Of a stretch of 64,000 nucleotides of DNA, positions 2,807-14,588 are shown piece by piece. Made by a program: the position numbers and the translations under genes. Location of the stretch: positions 108,741-172,740 of the forward strand of contig JAFQQN010000005.1 of the NCBI GenBank assembly GCA_017410605.1, given 5' to 3'. Every line of letters begins with the position of its first letter. The first letter of the stretch is position 1. This stretch comes from Clostridia bacterium (lineage in GTDB: Bacteria; Bacillota; Clostridia; Oscillospirales; Acutalibacteraceae). A model generated the notes under the pieces. That model was not told the origin of the DNA. It saw nothing but the letters and a program-made list of their open reading frames with translations, and made no database searches.

Positions 2807-4114
<1,308 letters not shown>

Positions 4115-6884: not shown

Positions 6885-7409
6885 ATGAATGTGTTTAAAA
6901 TTAAAATGGAATTACCTAACCGAAAACCAACACGATTAAAAAATTATAATTATGGCGCCGAGGGTGCATATTTTATAACAATATGTACACACAATCGTCG
7001 AAATATATTATCCAACATCGTAGGGGAGGGTCTCTGCGCCCTCCCGACAATAAAATTAACCCCCATTGGAGAAATCGTTGAAAATTCAATTAAATATATT
7101 AATAGCATTTACAATAACACAACGATTGAAAAATATGTAATTATGCCAAATCATATACATATAATTATCAAAATCAAATATAATGCTAATTAATTTCTAA
7201 ATCGAACGGGAGGGCACGGAGACCCTCCCCTACAGGTATATAATATAATCGGAAGGTTTAAATCTTTTACAACACATAAATATGGCGATATTCTTTGGCA
7301 ACGTTCCTTTCACTACCATATTGTACGGGGCGAAAAGGATTATATTAAAATTTGTGAATATATTGATAATAACCCCACAAAATGGAAAGAAGATAAATTT
7401 TATGTATAA
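6885..7409 (+). pseudogene. REP-associated/IS200-like HUH (Y1) transposase homolog (COG1943 type) interrupted by one in-frame TAA
   Basis: N-terminal part: ...YFITICTHNRRNIL...IMPNHIHIII (HUH motif). A TAA sits at 7191-7193. The same frame then continues FLNRTGGHGDPPLQVYNIIGRFKSFTTHKYGDILWQRSFHYHIVRGEKDYIKICEYIDNNPTKWKEDKFYV and stops at 7407-7409. Confidence 0.7.
7020..7233. repeat. Pair of inverted GC-rich hairpin modules inside the transposase-like gene
   Basis: GGGAGGG-N8-CCCTCCC occurs at 7024-7045 and again at 7208-7229. The 29-nt arms 7020-7048 and 7205-7233 are reverse complements with about 5 mismatches (2 in the loop, 3 at one end). Confidence 0.85.
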
Positions 7410-7415
7410 AAATAA

Positions 7416-7445
7416 AAGGGATTGGAGATTTTCCTCCAATCCCTT
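7416..7445. terminator. Bidirectional terminator
   Basis: AAGGGATTGGAG / CTCCAATCCCTT 12-bp stem. There is a T-run on the minus strand and TTTGATT on the plus strand. Confidence 0.7.
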
Positions 7446-7477
7446 TGATTATACATTTTAATTACAATTATCGAAGA

Positions 7478-7573
7478 TTATTTATTCAAAGCTTCGTGTA
7501 CAGCAACTGCTGGGGCAACGGTCATACCAACCATTGTGTTGTTACCTGCACCGATAAGACCCATCATCTCAAC
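7478..7573 (-). repeat. Remnant copy 1 of the 3' end of the GGGtGRT gene (last 31 codons plus stop)
   Basis: Encodes VEMMGLIGAGNNTMVGMTVAPAVAVHEALNK*. 86 of 96 nt match 12825-12920, including a 36-nt exact run (7538-7573 = 12885-12920). Confidence 0.9.
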
Positions 7574-7649
7574 GTAAAGAAGCCTTGCGTACAACTTTTC
7601 CTTAAATATTTAAGAGATAAACACATCATTCTGATGCGTTCTTAAACAC

Positions 7650-7678
7650 ATTATACATGAAAGCCTATCAAAAGTCAA
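7650..7678 (-). promoter_or_regulatory. SigA-type promoter pointing toward remnant copy 1
   Basis: Minus strand TTGACT, 17 nt spacer, TATAAT. No intact gene lies downstream before the terminator at 7416-7445. Confidence 0.5.
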
Positions 7679-7689
7679 TCATCTTTTTA

Positions 7690-7833
7690 TCAAGTTTTAT
7701 TTAAGTCTGTTTGTAATGATTGATTGATAGTTCCTTCTCTTAAATTTCTTGCTCGGCAGTTATCCAAGCACTTATTGCAGCCCTCTTCTAACGTTAGAAA
7801 ATCATCCCTAATCATCTGTAGTTTCTTCATCAT
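7690..7833 (-). pseudogene. 47-codon fragment that may be the N-terminus of a tyrosine-recombinase/integrase-like gene
   Basis: MMKKLQMIRDDFLTLEEGCNKCLDNCRARNLREGTINQSLQTDLNKT, preceded by a GAGG SD. The F..F...C..RNL.EGTI pattern resembles integrase SAM-like N-domains. It is truncated by a stop. Confidence 0.3.
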
Positions 7834-8134
7834 TTTCGCCTCAAAAAGTTGGACACATTATAAATAGAAAAACTAAAATGATGTGTCGTTTTTATTTTAA
7901 CTGTTGGTATGAAGCAGATTTTATCTGCCAAAAAGATTTATATTGCCCTGAATCGTCCGTGGCAAAACGGTCCGTTTAAACACGCCCTTAACGATGAAGA
8001 AACGGCCGCTGTTCCCGCTTCTTTGCTGAGAAGATGTGACAACCTTACCTATTGCGGTGAAGCTTCTATTATAGAAGGTGCGTATTGATAATAGAGCAAT
8101 TCTTTTTTTCGAAAAAGTTTCGTGATTCGCTTTA

Positions 8135-8163
8135 TTGACATCGTATTTTGTATTATGTATAAT
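8135..8163 (+). promoter_or_regulatory. Strong SigA-type promoter upstream of the beta-helix gene pair
   Basis: TTGACA, 17 nt spacer, TATAAT. The ATG at 8436 is about 270 nt downstream. Confidence 0.65.
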
Positions 8164-8435
8164 GATTAAAAATTGCTTCGGAGGAATAAAGATGGGGATT
8201 CGGTAATTTGCAATCATCGTTCATAAACGAAAAGGAAACTCATCACCAAGCCCTCTGTTATTCCATCAGAGATTAAAAGTTATCTCTTCCCTCCAAACGA
8301 AGATAACAATCTAATATAAAAGTGTTTTTTACTTGCAAAACACACTATTTTATGACATAACCAAATTAGTGATGAATTTTCAGCACCAACGCACTAAAAT
8401 AGGGTAATAGCCACAATCAAGGAGGTAAATTAAAT

Positions 8436-9776
8436 ATGGAAAAATATATTTCTCCAAATGAAGAAGGACTATTTGGCTCAACCGACAGCGAAACTATTCA
8501 AAATGCAATATGTATGGCTGAAAATGACGGTTGTCGTACCGTTTTAATCCCTCGCTACAATATGAGGACTGGTAAAAACGAATGGAGAATTTCCGAGAGT
8601 ATTAAGTTGCCGAGCAATTTTAACATATTTCTGGATAATTGCTATATGGTACAGGAGACCGGCACCTACGACAATATGTTCACAAACCTGTACTCCTGGG
8701 AACCCGAAAAATACAAGAAGCTTGAAAACGAACAGACAAACATTTCAATTATCGGACTTGGTAACGTAATACTCGACGGTGGTGTACATAATCACCTCAT
8801 GGAGAAAACGTCGGGTAAGTTCAATCAACCTCCGCTCCGACGAAACAATATGTTTCTTTGGATTAACGTAAGCGGCTTGAGAATTGAAAATCTTCATATA
8901 AGAAATCAGCGTTGGTGGGCGATAAACCATATGTTCTGCCGCAACGTCACGATAAAGGATATTGACTTTTATGCAATCCCCCACGTCAATAATATGGACG
9001 GTATTGATATGCGTATAGGCTGTAACAATTTCGATATTCGAAATATTACGGGACGCACAGGCGATGACGTTATAGCCATGACGGCTGTTCACGGCAAAGG
9101 CGAAATGGCATCTGCTGTGGAGGGCAAGGATCTAGACATTCACGACATTAAGATAAAGAATGTAAAGGCGGACCCGTACTATTGCTTCCTTGTCCGCATT
9201 CTCAACCACGACGGCTCAAATATATACAATATAGACATCGACACGGTTATGGACGTATCCGATTACACGAAAAAAATGCCTAGCGGAACATGCGTGGGCA
9301 TCGGAAGTAATATATACTCATTCGAACGTCCTGCAAATCACGGTGAAACAAGATGCATAAACGTTAAAAATATAACCTCACGCAGTCGCTCTGCGGTATT
9401 GGTCAGCAAAACTCTGTGCCATGCAGAATTTTCAAATATAAAGACCTATGGAGATAATATAGAGGGTTTTACCGTCTCCGATGGCTGTACACTCGAGGAT
9501 GTTCGTGTTAAGCATTTGTGGTACGGAGCAAAACAAGAGGAAATCTTAATGAGCAAAGAGTTAAAACCCGATCAATACCGTGGAACAGTCTTAAATTTGC
9601 CCTCTGCCAAGGGTGATATTAGTTTTTTCAATGTGAATGCCGATTTGGTGAAAACGTTTGTAAAAATAGGCGGTGAGGTTAATGTAACTATCGACGGATA
9701 TAGCCTTAACGATGCTATGAATACCTTTGAGGTTTCGCCTGAGAGCAAATTATTTTTGAATGGGGAGATAAAGTAA
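8436..9776 (+). CDS. Right-handed beta-helix protein, GH28/pectate-lyase-3-like, with no signal peptide
   Basis: N-terminal TDSETIQNAI...RTVLIPR motif, NMDGIDM and GRTGDDVIA (GH28-like NTD/DD boxes), and repeated xxIxN beta-helix turns. Confidence 0.65.
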   Translation: MEKYISPNEEGLFGSTDSETIQNAICMAENDGCRTVLIPRYNMRTGKNEWRISESIKLPSNFNIFLDNCYMVQETGTYDNMFTNLYSWEPEKYKKLENEQTNISIIGLGNVILDGGVHNHLMEKTSGKFNQPPLRRNNMFLWINVSGLRIENLHIRNQRWWAINHMFCRNVTIKDIDFYAIPHVNNMDGIDMRIGCNNFDIRNITGRTGDDVIAMTAVHGKGEMASAVEGKDLDIHDIKIKNVKADPYYCFLVRILNHDGSNIYNIDIDTVMDVSDYTKKMPSGTCVGIGSNIYSFERPANHGETRCINVKNITSRSRSAVLVSKTLCHAEFSNIKTYGDNIEGFTVSDGCTLEDVRVKHLWYGAKQEEILMSKELKPDQYRGTVLNLPSAKGDISFFNVNADLVKTFVKIGGEVNVTIDGYSLNDAMNTFEVSPESKLFLNGEIK

Positions 9777-9777
9777 T

Positions 9778-10599
9778 ATGTTGAATTTTAAATTACGCGG
9801 TTATCTTACCCCTGAGGATTTTTCGGGGAGTGATACCGAAAGAATACAAAAGGCTCTCGACACGTCACATTCGCAGGATATAGGTAGAGTTGTTCTATCC
9901 GGTAGCTATGAGGTTGATAAAACACTTTTTGTACATCCTATGACCGATCTCGTTTTTGAGAGAGCTACACTTTCTGCAACAGGCGCCTTCCCTCTTCTTG
10001 CCAACAAGAATCTGGATGAGAAGAAAAAGCACTTTTACTGCTTCCGCGACGAATTCATAACACTTCGCGGTGAGGGACGAATCGAGGGCGAAGTAGTGCT
10101 GTACAACGCCTTCCGCGTAAAAATCAACGGTATTGAGTTTGGCGGTGGATTGAAGCTTTTATTTACCGAGGAGGTAAGGCTCTACAACAGCAATTTTTCA
10201 GGCAAGTGCGGTATTCTAATGGGAATGGGCGCAAATAATTTTATTATGCAGAATTTATCCTCTAATTGTGACGGACCTGCCATAGTGATGGATGCATCAC
10301 ATATCCCCTATGACTACGTTGTCGGAAAAGAACCTGATATTCACGATATAATTCTGCAGGACTCAAGCTTTGGTGCAAGCTCGCCTGCCGTACTACTTAA
10401 CTCAACAGTTGATGCAAGAATATACAATATACAGATTGACCACATTAGCTCCGACGGTACTGTATTGAGTTTAGGAAAAAAGGATAACGAAGTTCCCCCG
10501 GAGTGCTACTTTAATCTTACGGCAGAAAATCTAACTTCAAAGCAAGGTGATAAAATTATTCTGAACGCCCCCACAAAGAACTGCTTCTTTAATGTATAA
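9778..10599 (+). CDS. Second right-handed beta-helix (pectate-lyase-3-like) protein, with no signal peptide
   Basis: SDTERIQKALD...GRVVLSGSYEVDKTLFV N-terminal motif. Its start is 2 nt after the upstream stop. Confidence 0.55.
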   Translation: MLNFKLRGYLTPEDFSGSDTERIQKALDTSHSQDIGRVVLSGSYEVDKTLFVHPMTDLVFERATLSATGAFPLLANKNLDEKKKHFYCFRDEFITLRGEGRIEGEVVLYNAFRVKINGIEFGGGLKLLFTEEVRLYNSNFSGKCGILMGMGANNFIMQNLSSNCDGPAIVMDASHIPYDYVVGKEPDIHDIILQDSSFGASSPAVLLNSTVDARIYNIQIDHISSDGTVLSLGKKDNEVPPECYFNLTAENLTSKQGDKIILNAPTKNCFFNV

Positions 10600-10698
10600 T
10601 TTACGCAGAAAAAAAGGGAATATAAAACGCTGATTACCGAACGATATATTTAATTGAGTTTATCATTACAATCAGCTATTTTTCATCATTTTCTCCTA

Positions 10699-10758
10699 AA
10701 AACAAATTGAACACATCATAACGTAATCCACGTGAATGATGTGTTCAATTTGTTTTTA
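10699..10758 (+). terminator. 20-bp perfect-stem hairpin plus T-run after the beta-helix pair
   Basis: AAACAAATTGAACACATCAT ... ATGATGTGTTCAATTTGTTT, followed by TTTATAGG. Confidence 0.6.
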
Positions 10759-10868
10759 TAGGAATTTAATAAAAGATGATTTCAGGTTGATGCTAAATTT
10801 ATCAAAAACTTGCTTCAAATTTGATAAAACCTCGCTATTTACTTGATAAAATCATGCTTTTTGTTCAA

Positions 10869-10935
10869 TTACTTGCTTGCCTCTTCAACTGCAACTGCAC
10901 AAGCAACAGTCATACCAACCATTGGGTTGTTACCT
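10869..10935 (-). repeat. Remnant copy 2 of the GGGtGRT gene 3' end
   Basis: Encodes ...RGNNPMVGMTVACAVAVEEASK*. 10891-10935 is an exact 45-nt direct repeat of 12850-12894. Confidence 0.9.
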
Positions 10936-11156
10936 CTCACTATAAACAGCCCTTTTTCCTTCTGCATAACATTTTTCTTTCTCATGACTGTTTTTTGCCT
11001 AAAAAACGGTGCTTTTCGGGGGTACTTGTCTTCCGGCGGCTCTATGTGGCTCTATCCGTTGTAGAAAAAATGTTGAAAAGATATTTTTTCTACATTTGAA
11101 AATCGTTATGTAGAAAAAAATCTCTCATATAATTTTTATAAATGTGTCTGTTTATC

Positions 11157-11759
11157 CTATTTCCCTGATAAACAAGACAAGAAACAATACAGATTAGATT
11201 CTTCTTTTTCTCTCCTATTCTTAAAATTCAAATAATATCTATGTGGGTATGGAGAAGATGTTTTAACATCAAAATATACCGAATTAAAATAATCTTCCTT
11301 GACAAGTTCAATTTTATTTAGGGGTATTAGGATTTTTGTGCCAATTAAATCTAAATATAAATTTTTATCACTAATTAAAAGATTTGCAAGAGTAGATAAT
11401 GTGTTTTTCTCAACATTCCAAAATGGACGGGATTCGTTATAACCTACGCTCTTCATACGACAACTGTTTTTCTCTTCAATAACAGTTAGAAATTTAGTAA
11501 CAAATATTGGATACTCGCCCTTTCTCATAATATCATCAAAATCATTTATATCTCTATCAAGCGATATGTTATTATAGTTTTTTTCTTGACACAACTCTAC
11601 AAAAGATTTAACTGCAGTTTTATGCTCTATGTTTCCATTCTCGTATTCTTTGCAAATATTCAATAGTGAATTACTATGCATTAAATATTTCTCGTGGCAT
11701 TCTTGATGTGCTACATCAAAAAATCGCTCTGTTTTTTTGCCACAGTAAATACATTTCAT
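11157..11759 (-). CDS. Hypothetical protein with an N-terminal CxxC...HxxCH zinc-ribbon-like motif
   Basis: 200 aa (MKCIYCGKKTERFFDVAHQECHEKY...), very AT-rich. I recognise no family. Confidence 0.6.
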   Translation of the reverse strand: MKCIYCGKKTERFFDVAHQECHEKYLMHSNSLLNICKEYENGNIEHKTAVKSFVELCQEKNYNNISLDRDINDFDDIMRKGEYPIFVTKFLTVIEEKNSCRMKSVGYNESRPFWNVEKNTLSTLANLLISDKNLYLDLIGTKILIPLNKIELVKEDYFNSVYFDVKTSSPYPHRYYLNFKNRREKEESNLYCFLSCLSGK

Positions 11760-11775
11760 TAAGTTCCACCAACTT

Positions 11776-12174
11776 TTAACTATATTGAAATATCTTTTTG
11801 ATTTTAACGGGTTTATTGCACTTTATAGCATAGTCAATCATTGACTTTGTACCCTTGCTTTTCTCGTCCCAAAAGCAAATAACATAGTCGCTGACCTCTG
11901 CCATTTGTTTATTTCGTTTTGGTCCAGCGCTTCTGCCGTAGGCTTTCCAATCGGCAGGGTATTTTTCAACCTTGAATCCGTTTTCTTCTGCATATCGTTC
12001 CCCGATAGTGTCAGCGCCACTTGCACAACCCGAAACGATAACTATATTGTTTTCTTTTCGGATATTTGATAAGCAATAATCAATATATAATTTTGCCTGT
12101 TCATAATTATTGTAATCTCTGCACCCTGCAATCACAACTCTTTTTGTGGTTAATTCCTTCTTAAACATAAACAC
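11776..12174 (-). CDS. DUF2493-type SLOG-superfamily protein
   Basis: VVIAGCRDY...VSGCASGADTIGERYA...YPADWKAYGRSAGPKRNKQM matches the DUF2493 signature (GGRD, GGxxGAD, PADW..GxxAGPxRN). Confidence 0.8.
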   Translation of the reverse strand: MFMFKKELTTKRVVIAGCRDYNNYEQAKLYIDYCLSNIRKENNIVIVSGCASGADTIGERYAEENGFKVEKYPADWKAYGRSAGPKRNKQMAEVSDYVICFWDEKSKGTKSMIDYAIKCNKPVKIKKIFQYS

Positions 12175-12260
12175 ACCTTTAAAATTTATATGGGGATTAT
12201 ATCCCCTTAATATTTAAGATTATAACCCCCATAATATTTATTGTCAAGGGGGGTACTATA

Positions 12261-12458
12261 ATGATTGTTTTTGATAAATTATGGAAAACTATGAAGCTTA
12301 AAGGTGTTACTACCTATAAATTAAGAGAATCCTGTGGAATTGACAGCAAAACCATAAGACGGCTCAAAGCCAACGAAAATATCGAAACAAAAACCATTGA
12401 TAAATTGTGCTCGGCTTTGGATTGTGATATATGCGACATAATGGAGTATAGAAAATAA
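12261..12458 (+). CDS. Small Xre/Cro-family HTH regulator
   Basis: 65 aa with a TTYKLRESCGIDSKTIRRL HTH. It is divergent from the SLOG gene, with a GGGGGG SD. Confidence 0.8.
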   Translation: MIVFDKLWKTMKLKGVTTYKLRESCGIDSKTIRRLKANENIETKTIDKLCSALDCDICDIMEYRK

Positions 12459-12470
12459 TTGTGTTTAAAT

Positions 12471-12500
12471 AAAGGGCGTTTTTCACCGCCCTTTATTTTT
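12471..12500 (+). terminator. Terminator after the Xre gene
   Basis: AAAGGGCG / CGCCCTTT stem followed by ATTTTTAT. Confidence 0.7.
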
Positions 12501-12532
12501 ATGGGTAGTATTTTCTTGAACATAATTACACC

Positions 12533-12562
12533 CAATAAAAAAGCACACCCCGAGGGGTGTGC
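12533..12562 (-). terminator. Strong terminator on the minus strand
   Basis: GCACACCC / GGGTGTGC stem followed by TTTTTTATT on the minus strand. Confidence 0.65.
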
Positions 12563-12585
12563 CGAAAAAGTGTTCCCTCAGTTTG

Positions 12586-12686
12586 TTGCGACGCAAACTG
12601 ACATTTCACCATACGGAGAAAAGGGTAACACCTTTTACCAAGGTATTATCCGTATGATGAAAAAAATTATTCAGTTCGCGTCGCAA
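12586..12686. ncRNA. Nested three-stem long hairpin, a candidate small RNA or 3'-UTR element
   Basis: P1 12586-12601/12671-12686 (16 bp, with one G-U in the minus-strand sense). P2 12610-12617/12649-12656 (8 bp). P3 12619-12624/12631-12636 (6 bp). Confidence 0.35.
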
Positions 12687-12775
12687 ATAGAGTTTAACAC
12701 ATTCGGTTGTTTTTTGCAAGTATTATACAAAAATTGCTCAGAAAAAGAAAAGCTTATGATATAATATAAATGTCA

Positions 12776-12800
12776 AGGGCTTGGGAAATCCCCAAGCCCT
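12776..12800 (-). terminator. Hairpin just downstream of the GGGtGRT stop
   Basis: AGGGCTTGGG / CCCAAGCCCT 10-bp stem. There is no clean U-tract. Confidence 0.4.
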
Positions 12801-12824
12801 ATATTAATTATCATACATTAAAAA

Positions 12825-13826
12825 TTACTTATTAAGCGCTTCGTGTACAGCAACTGCACAAGCAACAGTCATACCAACCATTGGGTTGTTACCTGCACCG
12901 ATAAGACCCATCATCTCAACATGGGCAGGAACAGAAGAAGAACCTGCAAACTGAGCGTCAGAGTGCATACGGCCCATTGTATCGGTCATACCATAGGAAG
13001 CAGGACCTGCAGCCATATTATCGGGATGGAGAGTACGGCCTGTACCGCCACCGGAAGCAACAGAGAAATATTTCTTGCCCTGTTCAATACATTCCTTTTT
13101 ATAGGTACCTGCAACGGGATGCTGGAAGCGAGTGGGGTTGGTAGAGTTACCGGTGATAGAAACATCAACGCCCTCGTTATGCATAATAGCTACGCCCTCG
13201 CGAACATCGTCGGCACCGTAGCAACGAACCTTTGCGCGTTCACCGTTGGAATAAGCGGTTTCCTTAACAATTTCAAGCTTACCTGTGAAATAGTCAAACT
13301 TAGTCTGAACATAGGTAAAGCCGTTGATTCTGGAAATAATTTGAGCGGCATCCTTACCAAGACCGTTAAGGATAACACGAAGAGGCTCTTTTCTTGCTTT
13401 ATTAGCGCTTCTTGCAAGACCGATAGCACCCTCAGCAGCAGCAAAGGATTCGTGACCGGCAAGGAAAGCAAAGCACTTTGTTTCTTCTCTAAGAAGCATT
13501 GCGCCAAGGTTACCGTGGCCAATACCAACCTTACGGTCGTCGGCAACAGAACCGGGAATACAGAAGGACTGAAGACCAAGGCCAATTTTTTCTGCAGCCT
13601 CTGCAGCAGAAGCAACCTTATCTTTAATTGCGATAGCACAGCCTACAACATAAGCCCAAGCAGCATTTTCAAAGCAGATAGGCTGAATGCCCTTAACAAT
13701 GTTATATGCATCTACACCTGCATTGTCACAGATTTCTTTAGCTTCTTCAATAGAAGCGATACCGTGCTTTGCAAGTTCAGCATTAATTTGATCTATTCTT
13801 CTTTCATAACTTTCAAATAAAGCCAT
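12825..13826 (-). CDS. GGGtGRT-family protein (conserved, function unknown)
   Basis: 333 aa containing the literal SGGGTGRTLHPDN signature. AAGGGAGG SD. Confidence 0.85.
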   Translation of the reverse strand: MALFESYERRIDQINAELAKHGIASIEEAKEICDNAGVDAYNIVKGIQPICFENAAWAYVVGCAIAIKDKVASAAEAAEKIGLGLQSFCIPGSVADDRKVGIGHGNLGAMLLREETKCFAFLAGHESFAAAEGAIGLARSANKARKEPLRVILNGLGKDAAQIISRINGFTYVQTKFDYFTGKLEIVKETAYSNGERAKVRCYGADDVREGVAIMHNEGVDVSITGNSTNPTRFQHPVAGTYKKECIEQGKKYFSVASGGGTGRTLHPDNMAAGPASYGMTDTMGRMHSDAQFAGSSSVPAHVEMMGLIGAGNNPMVGMTVACAVAVHEALNK

Positions 13827-13845
13827 TACGTTACGCCTCCCTTAA

Positions 13846-14538
13846 TTATTCTTCACGGGGGTCGATAAGCTTTGCAGCATCATCAACACGTCCGTACTGG
13901 CCGCTTGCTTTTTCTAAAGCTTCGTTAGCGTCCATACCCTTTTTAATCATATCCATCATTTTGCCAAGATGAACAAACTTATAACCGATAATAGCGCCGT
14001 CAGCATCAACTGCAACCTTGGTGATATAACCCTCAGCAAGTTCAAGATAACGGGGGCCTTTAACCTTTGTAGCATATGTAGTACCGGTCTGTGAACGGAG
14101 ACCCTTACCAAGGTCTTCAAGACCTGCACCAACAGGAAGACCGTCTTCAGAGAAGGCTGTCTGTGTACGACCGTAAACTATCTGTAAGAAAAGCTCTCTC
14201 ATAGCGGTGTTAATAGCGTCGCAAACAAGGTCGGTATTAAGAGCCTCAAGAAGAGTCTTGCCAACAAGAATTTCAGATGCCATAGCGGCAGAGTGGGTCA
14301 TACCTGAGCAACCAATGGTTTCAACCAAGGCCTCTTCAATAACGCCCTCTTTAACATTAAGTGAAAGCTTACAAGCGCCCTGTTGAGGTGCGCACCAGCC
14401 AATACCGTGTGTCAGGCCGGAAATATCTTTAACTTCCTTAACCTGAACCCATTTGCCCTCTTCCGGAATGGGAGCGGGGCCGTGATATGCACCCTTAGCA
14501 AGGGGGCACATTCTTTCTACTTCGCTCGAATACTTCAT
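13846..14538 (-). CDS. NifU-N/IscU-like scaffold-domain protein with a C-terminal extension
   Basis: GWCAPQQGACKLSLNV...ETIGCSGMTHSAAMASEILVGKTLLEA parallels the IscU Cys-containing blocks. AAAGGAG SD. Confidence 0.7.
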   Translation of the reverse strand: MKYSSEVERMCPLAKGAYHGPAPIPEEGKWVQVKEVKDISGLTHGIGWCAPQQGACKLSLNVKEGVIEEALVETIGCSGMTHSAAMASEILVGKTLLEALNTDLVCDAINTAMRELFLQIVYGRTQTAFSEDGLPVGAGLEDLGKGLRSQTGTTYATKVKGPRYLELAEGYITKVAVDADGAIIGYKFVHLGKMMDMIKKGMDANEALEKASGQYGRVDDAAKLIDPREE

Positions 14539-14588
14539 AAATGTACTCCTTTCGATTTGTAGTTGATTTAATACAACTGTACCTATTT

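Follow-up and report, generated by a model that had tools for sequence, protein, structure and literature searches.

The 3′ end of the GGGtGRT gene in Clostridia bacterium contig JAFQQN010000005.1 probably serves as a bacterial attachment site (attB) for site-specific integrative elements. The window analyzed, meaning the whole 64,000-nt stretch at positions 108,741 to 172,740 of that contig (assembly GCA_017410605.1), holds an array of three copies of this gene end, and the array is best understood as the decayed remnants of such insertions, a reading to which a probability of roughly 0.85 is given. In the mechanism proposed, each element would carry the last 65–140 nt of the GGGtGRT gene, stop codon included, beside its own tyrosine integrase gene. 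Recombination, presumably within this shared stretch, would make the gene read into the tail supplied by the element and move the previous tail to the distal side of the insert, after which an element-borne hairpin and T-run would separate the gene from the integrase gene. Repeated insertion into live or orphan tails, together with internal deletions, would build arrays such as the one in the window, which would read gene, island B, orphan tail 2, island A and orphan tail 1. Island A would then be what remains of one or two elements of a 311-aa integrase lineage, termed Int-G1, together with a beta-helix cassette. The sequence of insertions and deletions can be reconstructed only conditionally, as several histories fit. 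The gene, its tails and their terminators are placed as follows.

12825..13826, minus strand: intact GGGtGRT gene, the proposed integration target, 333 aa (Pfam PF14057)
13846-14538: NifU-N-like gene, first gene of a two-gene operon in which GGGtGRT is the second
12825..12920, minus strand: copy 3, the live 3′ end of the GGGtGRT gene, encoding VEMMGLIGAGNNPMVGMTVACAVAVHEALNK and the stop (repeat search, base comparison)
10869..10935, minus strand: copy 2, an orphan tail encoding GNNPMVGMTVACAVAVEEASK and the stop (repeat search, base comparison)
7478..7573, minus strand: copy 1, an orphan tail encoding VEMMGLIGAGNNTMVGMTVAPAVAVHEALNK and the stop (repeat search, base comparison)
12776..12808, minus strand: terminator hairpin directly 3′ of the live stop (hairpin scan, which lists 12776-12800 on the plus strand)
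7415..7446, minus strand: terminator 3′ of copy 1, with a 14-bp stem and T-run (hairpin scan)

The target gene is intact despite the insertions, its 333-aa reading frame covering the whole PF14057 profile (positions 1–327 of 327, E = 3e-195 in a Pfam search). A repeat search of the window returned a single three-member direct-repeat family at 7474–7573, 10862–10961 and 12821–12920, with all three copies on the minus strand in the orientation of the GGGtGRT gene. A first-pass annotation of the window had reported three such copies, and base-by-base comparison reproduced its figures, with 45 consecutive identical nucleotides between copy 2 and the live tail and, for copy 1, 86 of 96 nucleotides matching that tail, the first 36 without a break. 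Homology to the gene begins 64–67 nt before the stop in copy 2 and 93 nt before it in copy 1. The codon differences between copy 1 and the live tail comprise five synonymous and two non-synonymous changes, the latter being the substitutions P314T and C322P at family-conserved residues. The live tail and copy 1 both end in AVAVHEALNK, and copy 2 ends in AVAVEEASK. The EEASK ending is the tail type of other families and of an Int-G1 element in genome G312, with which copy 2 shares its last 21 nt exactly, and congeners end in NEALNK. No fourth copy is present in the whole 1.72-Mb, 23-contig genome, in which the next best matches have E > 0.6.

A terminator-like hairpin follows each of the three copies, that of copy 2 being the hairpin and T-run at 10699–10758. 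The distal copy, copy 1, had been considered the native gene end because a terminator follows it. That terminator is real (7446 to 7415), but the presence of one after every copy removes its power to discriminate, and any of the three copies may be ancestral. The 50 nt 3′ of the live stop, terminator included, are homologous to the sequence that follows the gene in G001 and the displaced tails in G006 and G018 (blastn of window 12775–12920 against congener loci L046, L038 and L040). The terminator common to these congeners is therefore the one after the live gene, not the one after copy 1, which has no homolog among 40 relatives (7395–7480) and is shared, convergently, with a Y1_Tnp pseudogene at 6885–7402. 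The description of both intervening blocks as AT-rich with non-core cargo likewise holds in part: the cargo is accessory, and AT-richness is clear for island B (GC fraction 0.327) and for the intergenic edges, but island A has 0.384 against 0.392 for the window. The GGGtGRT gene itself stands at 0.455.

The association of integrases with this gene end is strict in other genomes. In a scan of one genome per species across 185,579 species, all 20 loci encoding Int-G1 integrases (311–326 aa) at ≥47% identity adjoin GGGtGRT or an orphan tail on the same strand, compared with none of 60 at ≤42%. The host labels of Int-G1 are Oscillospiraceae, Candidatus Fimenecus, Lachnospiraceae, Lacrimispora and Acetivibrio. 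The same picture emerged from 301 sampled genomes of the order, with eight of eight loci at ≥47% directly downstream of GGGtGRT or an orphan tail, one pseudogene excepted, and homologs at ≤38% not so placed. A second integrase, Int-G2 (421 aa), adjoins the tail at 12 of its 13 loci in the species scan. It is only ~20% identical to Int-G1, so two unrelated integrases use the same target. The intact integrase genes of relatives start ~110–190 nt after the GGGtGRT stop and encode Phage_integrase and SAM-like domains.

Both lineages meet in G031, a genome from another family of the same order, in which an intact Int-G2 gene (421 aa) begins no more than 145 nt after the GGGtGRT stop and gives way to ~4 kb of cargo, an orphan tail and the start of a second integrase. 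This second integrase is an Int-G1, 52% identical to a 47-codon integrase stub in the window. An element of ~7.8 kb lies between live tail and orphan tail in G227, and the Int-G1 element of G312 occupies a 12,072-nt contig (L083, SVQQ01000033) that both begins and ends in GGGtGRT tail. Integration into the gene's 3′ end, as the first-pass annotation had suggested, is thus borne out by single-copy sites, differently filled sites and intact integrases beside the repeat in relatives, and the intact elements that it proposed to look for were found for both Int-G1 and Int-G2.

Within the window, traces of Int-G1 are confined to island A, the parts of which are listed here from the copy 2 side to the copy 1 side after the island itself.

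7574-10868: island A, GC 0.384, between copy 2 and copy 1
10699..10758, minus strand: hairpin with an inverted pair of the ACACATCAT motif and a T-run (alignment A1, motif enrichment)
10672..10689, minus strand: 5-codon stub of an Int-G1 integrase (MMKNS and stop), in register with the integrase starts in alignment A1
8436..10599, plus strand: beta-helix cargo of island A, two genes
9778-10599, plus strand: second beta-helix protein, 273 aa (PF13229, weak)
8436-9776, plus strand: GH28-like beta-helix protein, 446 aa (Pfam PF00295, E = 9e-8)
7849..7890, minus strand: second Int-G1 hairpin copy, with ACACATTAT / ACACATCAT arms (repeat families D3, D11)
7690..7833, minus strand: 47-codon N-terminal stub of an Int-G1 integrase (tblastn)
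7574..7689, minus strand: Int-G1-type right arm (P arm) of an element, containing ACACATYAT at 7621-7629 and 7646-7654

The 47-codon stub is 52–73% identical to the N-termini of full-length Int-G1 integrases (tblastn, E = 1e-10 to 7e-17). Both minus-strand stubs open with ATGATGAA, and both are preceded by the Int-G1 hairpin, at 7849–7890 and 10699–10758. In alignment A1 a hairpin of the form GTTGGACACATCAT...ATGATGTGTCCAA with a T-run lies just upstream of the Int-G1 start in all nine loci. Hairpin and stub start in the 7849–7890 region form a direct repeat with 10679–10756, bracketing the beta-helix cassette (families D3 and D11). The 9-mer ACACATYAT occurs eight times in the window, where 0.76 occurrences are expected, and six of the eight lie at 7621–7886 and 10711–10744, the edges of the island. 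The same 9-mer recurs in G006, G227, L093, L095, L170 and L178, within the arms that lie upstream of their orphan tails, and the 7574–7689 arm resembles these arms in G006, L093, L095, L170 and L178.

The hairpin would end GGGtGRT transcription ahead of the integrase gene, and the copy at 10699–10758 probably represents a terminator supplied by the element, an integrase arm site or both. The ACACATYAT / ACACATCAT motif is a putative arm-type binding site for the integrase. The left end of an Int-G1 element is recognizable in the combination of the hairpin, the 5-codon stub and the 3′ part of copy 2, because copy 2 ends in EEASK and the stop with the same last 21 nt as the G312 element. The segment at 7574–7689 plus copy 1 is a right end of Int-G1 type.

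The islands hold no intact recombinase, only the 47-codon and 5-codon Int-G1 stubs, and the earlier view of them as fixed or decayed is upheld. The genome also lacks an Int-G1 or Int-G2 gene elsewhere, an Int-G1 query having retrieved from it only an integrase of 36% identity, on contig C5, and its PF00589 matches are without exception outside the GGGtGRT locus. With both integrases reduced to stubs and no close copy in the genome, the islands cannot move unaided. No relaxase or transfer genes are found among the open reading frames (ORFs) of the islands, nor any phage structural or packaging genes; PHROGs searches with the cargo returned a regulator, a SLOG/GTP-binding-like family and one family of unknown function. 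Now immobile on their own, the islands resemble cis-mobilizable elements (CIMEs), which are flanked by attachment (att) sites and lack an integrase. The beta-helix cargo may travel with the Int-G1 element type; neither it nor, in particular, its GH28-like gene has a homolog at E ≤ 1e-20 in 40 relatives.

Orphan tails, tandem arrays and degraded integrases recur in other genomes, and arrays of at least three copies are present in independent ones (L040, L178, L177). The left edges of orphan tails in the fetched loci fall into two clusters, one at −91 to −94 nt from the stop (seven cases, including copy 1 at −93) and the other at −62 to −69 nt (six cases, among them copy 2 and, in G031, the tail that the intact Int-G2 element left behind). 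Edges fixed in this way should be expected of site-specific recombination with few types of element attachment site (attP). An assignment of one integrase lineage to each boundary class was considered and dropped because the data are mixed, Int-G2 in G031 giving −69 and L177 giving −91. GGGtGRT is present in 217 of the 301 order-sample genomes, most of which show one match. More than one match is found in 33 of the 217, an upper bound for extra tails since some of these are genes split at contig ends. Many genomes, including the one-contig genome G033, have a single tail copy. Several relatives' contigs begin or end inside the tail, as expected where a repeat flanks variable DNA, and the cargo at the site differs in every congener inspected. 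The locus of G013, where Y1_Tnp follows the live tail, was considered as an empty site and rejected, since the spacer there is the Int-G1 hairpin and the site is itself a remnant.

One congener array and one element can be described further. Congener G018 (L040) has its own three-copy array (2076–2258, 3318–3363 and 7736–7778), both orphan tails of which are short and decayed; it contains HTH-HTH-SLOG genes (HTH, helix-turn-helix), a putative LysR regulator and ABC transporter, identified from ORFs, and then a SLOG fragment. The G312 element encodes DarT (E = 3e-38), DarG (E = 1e-89) and a WYL regulator according to family searches, and, as read from the sequence alone, a SprT-like protein, a small serine recombinase and a 713-aa BspA-type leucine-rich-repeat (LRR) surface protein.

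Island B, between the live tail and copy 2, differs in content from island A.

10936..12824: island B, 1.9 kb, GC 0.327, between the live tail and copy 2
12530-12735, minus strand: structured-RNA candidate
12261-12458, plus strand: HTH_26 regulator (Cro/C1-type HTH)
11776-12174, minus strand: SLOG/YAcAr protein
11157-11759, minus strand: 200-aa protein without a known family match
10936-11137: right arm of island B, common to G013

The HTH-SLOG module adjoins GGGtGRT in congeners G018 (twice), G012, G013 and G009. SLOG homologs are present in 20 of the 301 order-sample genomes, and in at least 10 of the other 19 SLOG-bearing genomes the SLOG gene, often a pseudogene, lies no more than 5 kb downstream of GGGtGRT and in the same orientation. 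From this distribution, island B reads as a recurrent, partly decayed occupant of the GGGtGRT site in several families. It may be old and not a separate recent insertion, or may have been moved by homologous recombination between tails.

Two observations concern the RNA candidate of island B and the target operon. The candidate has its own promoter-like box and terminator, and homologs occur twice in tandem in G041 (L078, 2270–2455 and 2520–2715), in G013 (L043, 6595–6800) and in G184 and G116 (L216, L217), each time downstream of GGGtGRT. Compensatory changes are seen in 19 of 46 predicted pairs, and no Rfam match was found at E ≤ 1; the candidate could be part of the elements or of the native flank. 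Identity across the NifU-like/GGGtGRT operon (window 12825–14554) is incongruent with taxonomy: in G042 (L214) and G247 (L215), genomes of family f18, GGGtGRT is 95–96% identical and the operon is 84–85% identical at the nucleotide level, with HTH-SLOG in addition, and mgtE is only 55–56% identical; the corresponding values for congener G014 are 77% for GGGtGRT and 64% for mgtE. This pattern suggests that the target operon and the adjacent module have been exchanged horizontally.

Several observations weigh against decayed site-specific insertions as the full account of the locus. No tail copy is found upstream of the hairpin of the 47-codon stub, where one is expected, and at least one junction must therefore have been lost. 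This stub without a preceding tail, taken with the direct repeats around the cassette, implies that island A is either two tandem Int-G1 elements with large deletions or a single element with an internal duplication. No trace of an integrase was found in island B, and the 50 nt 3′ of the live stop look native to the genus, so this island could have arrived or been rearranged by homologous recombination. The comparison with relatives that the first-pass annotation proposed yielded differently filled and single-copy sites, but no clean empty site with the window's own flanks, the distal one included. The synteny of GGGtGRT with its downstream neighbors mgtE and Y1_Tnp does not extend to congeners, in which mgtE lies on other contigs.

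An alternative is that the islands, or at least island B, came by homologous recombination anchored on the highly conserved GGGtGRT gene and its orphan tails, the tails being by-products of allele replacement or unequal crossing-over. Besides the missing integrase remnant in island B and the genus-native type of the live tail and its terminator, this alternative can draw on the seemingly permuted order of modules, which in the window runs gene, RNA, HTH-SLOG, tail and, farther on, Y1_Tnp, and in G013 gene, Y1_Tnp, HTH-SLOG, tail and, farther on, RNA. The operon and HTH-SLOG are also common, as a block, to the family f18 genomes. Yet homologous recombination alone makes no orphan tails with fixed boundaries, and the left edge of copy 2 falls in the −62 to −69 nt class together with the tails of the intact Int-G2 element in G031 and of G013 and G009. 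Island A, moreover, clearly holds integrase stubs and arms. As an explanation of the array, homologous recombination is accordingly judged unlikely.

Far less probable still is an assembly or binning artefact that joined strain variants at a shared tail, even though the genome is a 23-contig assembly, presumably a metagenome-assembled genome (MAG), and relatives' contigs often break in the tail. Exact identity extends over no more than 45 and 36 nt, and there are differences among the copies. Because the longest exact repeat, 45 nt, is shorter than the k-mers that assemblers usually use, collapse or misjoining is unlikely. Across the locus a 162-kb ENA metagenome contig matches at 100% identity for 21 kb, and the exact GGGtGRT protein is found on four contigs on record, although these may not be independent of the MAG; the arrays of at least three copies in L040, L178 and L177 come from independent genomes. 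Misassembly of the locus is very unlikely on these grounds. There is equally little to recommend the idea that the extra tails are themselves functional, as small ORFs, decoys or regulatory 3′ untranslated modules kept by selection. The predominance of synonymous differences in copy 1 (five of seven changed codons) would fit such a role, but the same bias is expected if each tail was once a real gene end, and copy 1 is altered at the conserved residues named above. The copies lack a start codon and a ribosome-binding site of their own, and stop codons occur within the counterparts of copy 2 in G013 and G009. Site-specific integration at the GGGtGRT 3′ end, followed by decay, remains the preferred explanation.

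The site also serves phages, as indicated by a 46-kb IMG/VR provirus that adjoins GGGtGRT at the same position. It encodes an integrase 47% identical to Int-G1, along with candidate terminase, portal, capsid, tape-measure and lysin genes, recognized by size, order and sequence. It is the only such provirus found, and no circular element was found in IMG/VR. Nor do GenBank phages contain a close integrase, the best matches being 29% identical to the provirus integrase (L186) and ~30% to Int-G2. Five GenBank virome contigs labeled "Bacteriophage sp." that match the tail (L058–L062: MT835590, MT836003, MT837192, MT838301 and MT839063) were set aside as fragments of bacterial chromosomes. They carry the NifU-like/GGGtGRT operon and housekeeping genes, with no integrase or phage genes near the match.

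Integration at gene ends has many precedents. Phage 21 and e14 integrate at icd in Escherichia coli, other prophages and islands use tRNA and tmRNA genes, and ICESt1 and ICESt3, which are integrative and conjugative elements (ICEs), integrate at fda. As in phage 21 and e14, the replacement 3′ end supplied by the element differs mostly synonymously and the displaced end stays behind as an orphan fragment; the target, the integrase lineages and the hosts are different, and the cargo of the array is mostly non-phage. Tyrosine-recombinase elements are also known from the 3′ ends of housekeeping genes, among them the integrative and mobilizable elements (IMEs) of streptococci at rplL, rpsI, rpmG and rpmE, islands at guaA, SGI1 at trmE/thdF and mobilizable genomic islands (MGIs) at yicC (PMC5704250). 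The GGGtGRT elements resemble these in having a tyrosine integrase at one end, in occurring sporadically and in carrying variable cargo that includes defense genes (DarTG in the G312 element). They differ in their target, a gene of unknown function (PF14057) that is not among these tabulated targets, in hosts that are uncultured gut Oscillospirales and Lachnospiraceae, and in that inspection of the small elements revealed neither relaxase nor conjugation genes. The rebuilding of a gene end by direct repeats, the tandem accretion of elements and their decay to CIMEs that lack an integrase are treated as standard in PMC5704250, which cites Pavlovic 2004 and Bellanger 2011 for CIMEs and tandem accretion in ICESt1-related elements. 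Like streptococcal CIMEs, the islands would keep tails (att) at both ends, have lost integration genes and be stacked in tandem at one site, which unrelated integrases share elsewhere (Int-G1 and Int-G2 in G031). Unlike them, the array appears to have lost one expected internal junction, and island A may lack two usable att sites of the same type. The window therefore appears to fit known 3′-end integration and CIME decay, excision aside, through a mechanism that is not new at a target that seems to be.

In the literature searched, no paper mentioning the GGGtGRT name describes the gene as an attB or integration target, in keeping with the first-pass annotation, to which no description of such a use was known. 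A wider proposal, offered tentatively and at somewhat less than even odds, is that the GGGtGRT tail is an undescribed attB spanning at least two orders of gut Clostridia, on which at least two unrelated integrase lineages, those of prophages included, have converged; its integrase-less arrays would still be substrates for recombination with incoming elements, and this traffic might explain the apparent exchange of the operon. Under the preferred explanation of the array, a very conserved gene, listed as abundantly expressed in metaproteome papers, would serve mobile DNA as a landing pad in gut Clostridia that are uncultured. Recognizing it as such would help to delimit islands and prophages in fragmented MAGs, since contigs often break at the GGGtGRT tail, and would point to where defense and surface-protein cargo accumulates. 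The two natural integrase/attB pairs might also provide genetic tools for Oscillospirales and Lachnospiraceae.

A few further observations were made in and around the islands. In G230 (L084, 14014–14259 and 17099–17947) a distance of 2.8 kb separates an Int-G1 pseudogene, which has two in-frame TGA codons, from a homolog of the window's GH28-like protein with 37% identity, with only a 16-nt trace of the GGGtGRT tail nearby. Rfam and tRNA scans of the region returned nothing relevant except an L21 leader, and microRNA (miRNA) matches at 10681–10774 correspond to the Int-G1 hairpin and not to a miRNA. The IS200-like Y1_Tnp gene beyond copy 1 (6885–7402, plus strand) is interrupted by a single in-frame TAA at 7191–7193, and its coding sequence holds a 27-nt, 93%-complementary inverted repeat (7020–7046 / 7207–7233). 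A Y1_Tnp homolog of 74% identity lies convergent to the live GGGtGRT tail in G013.

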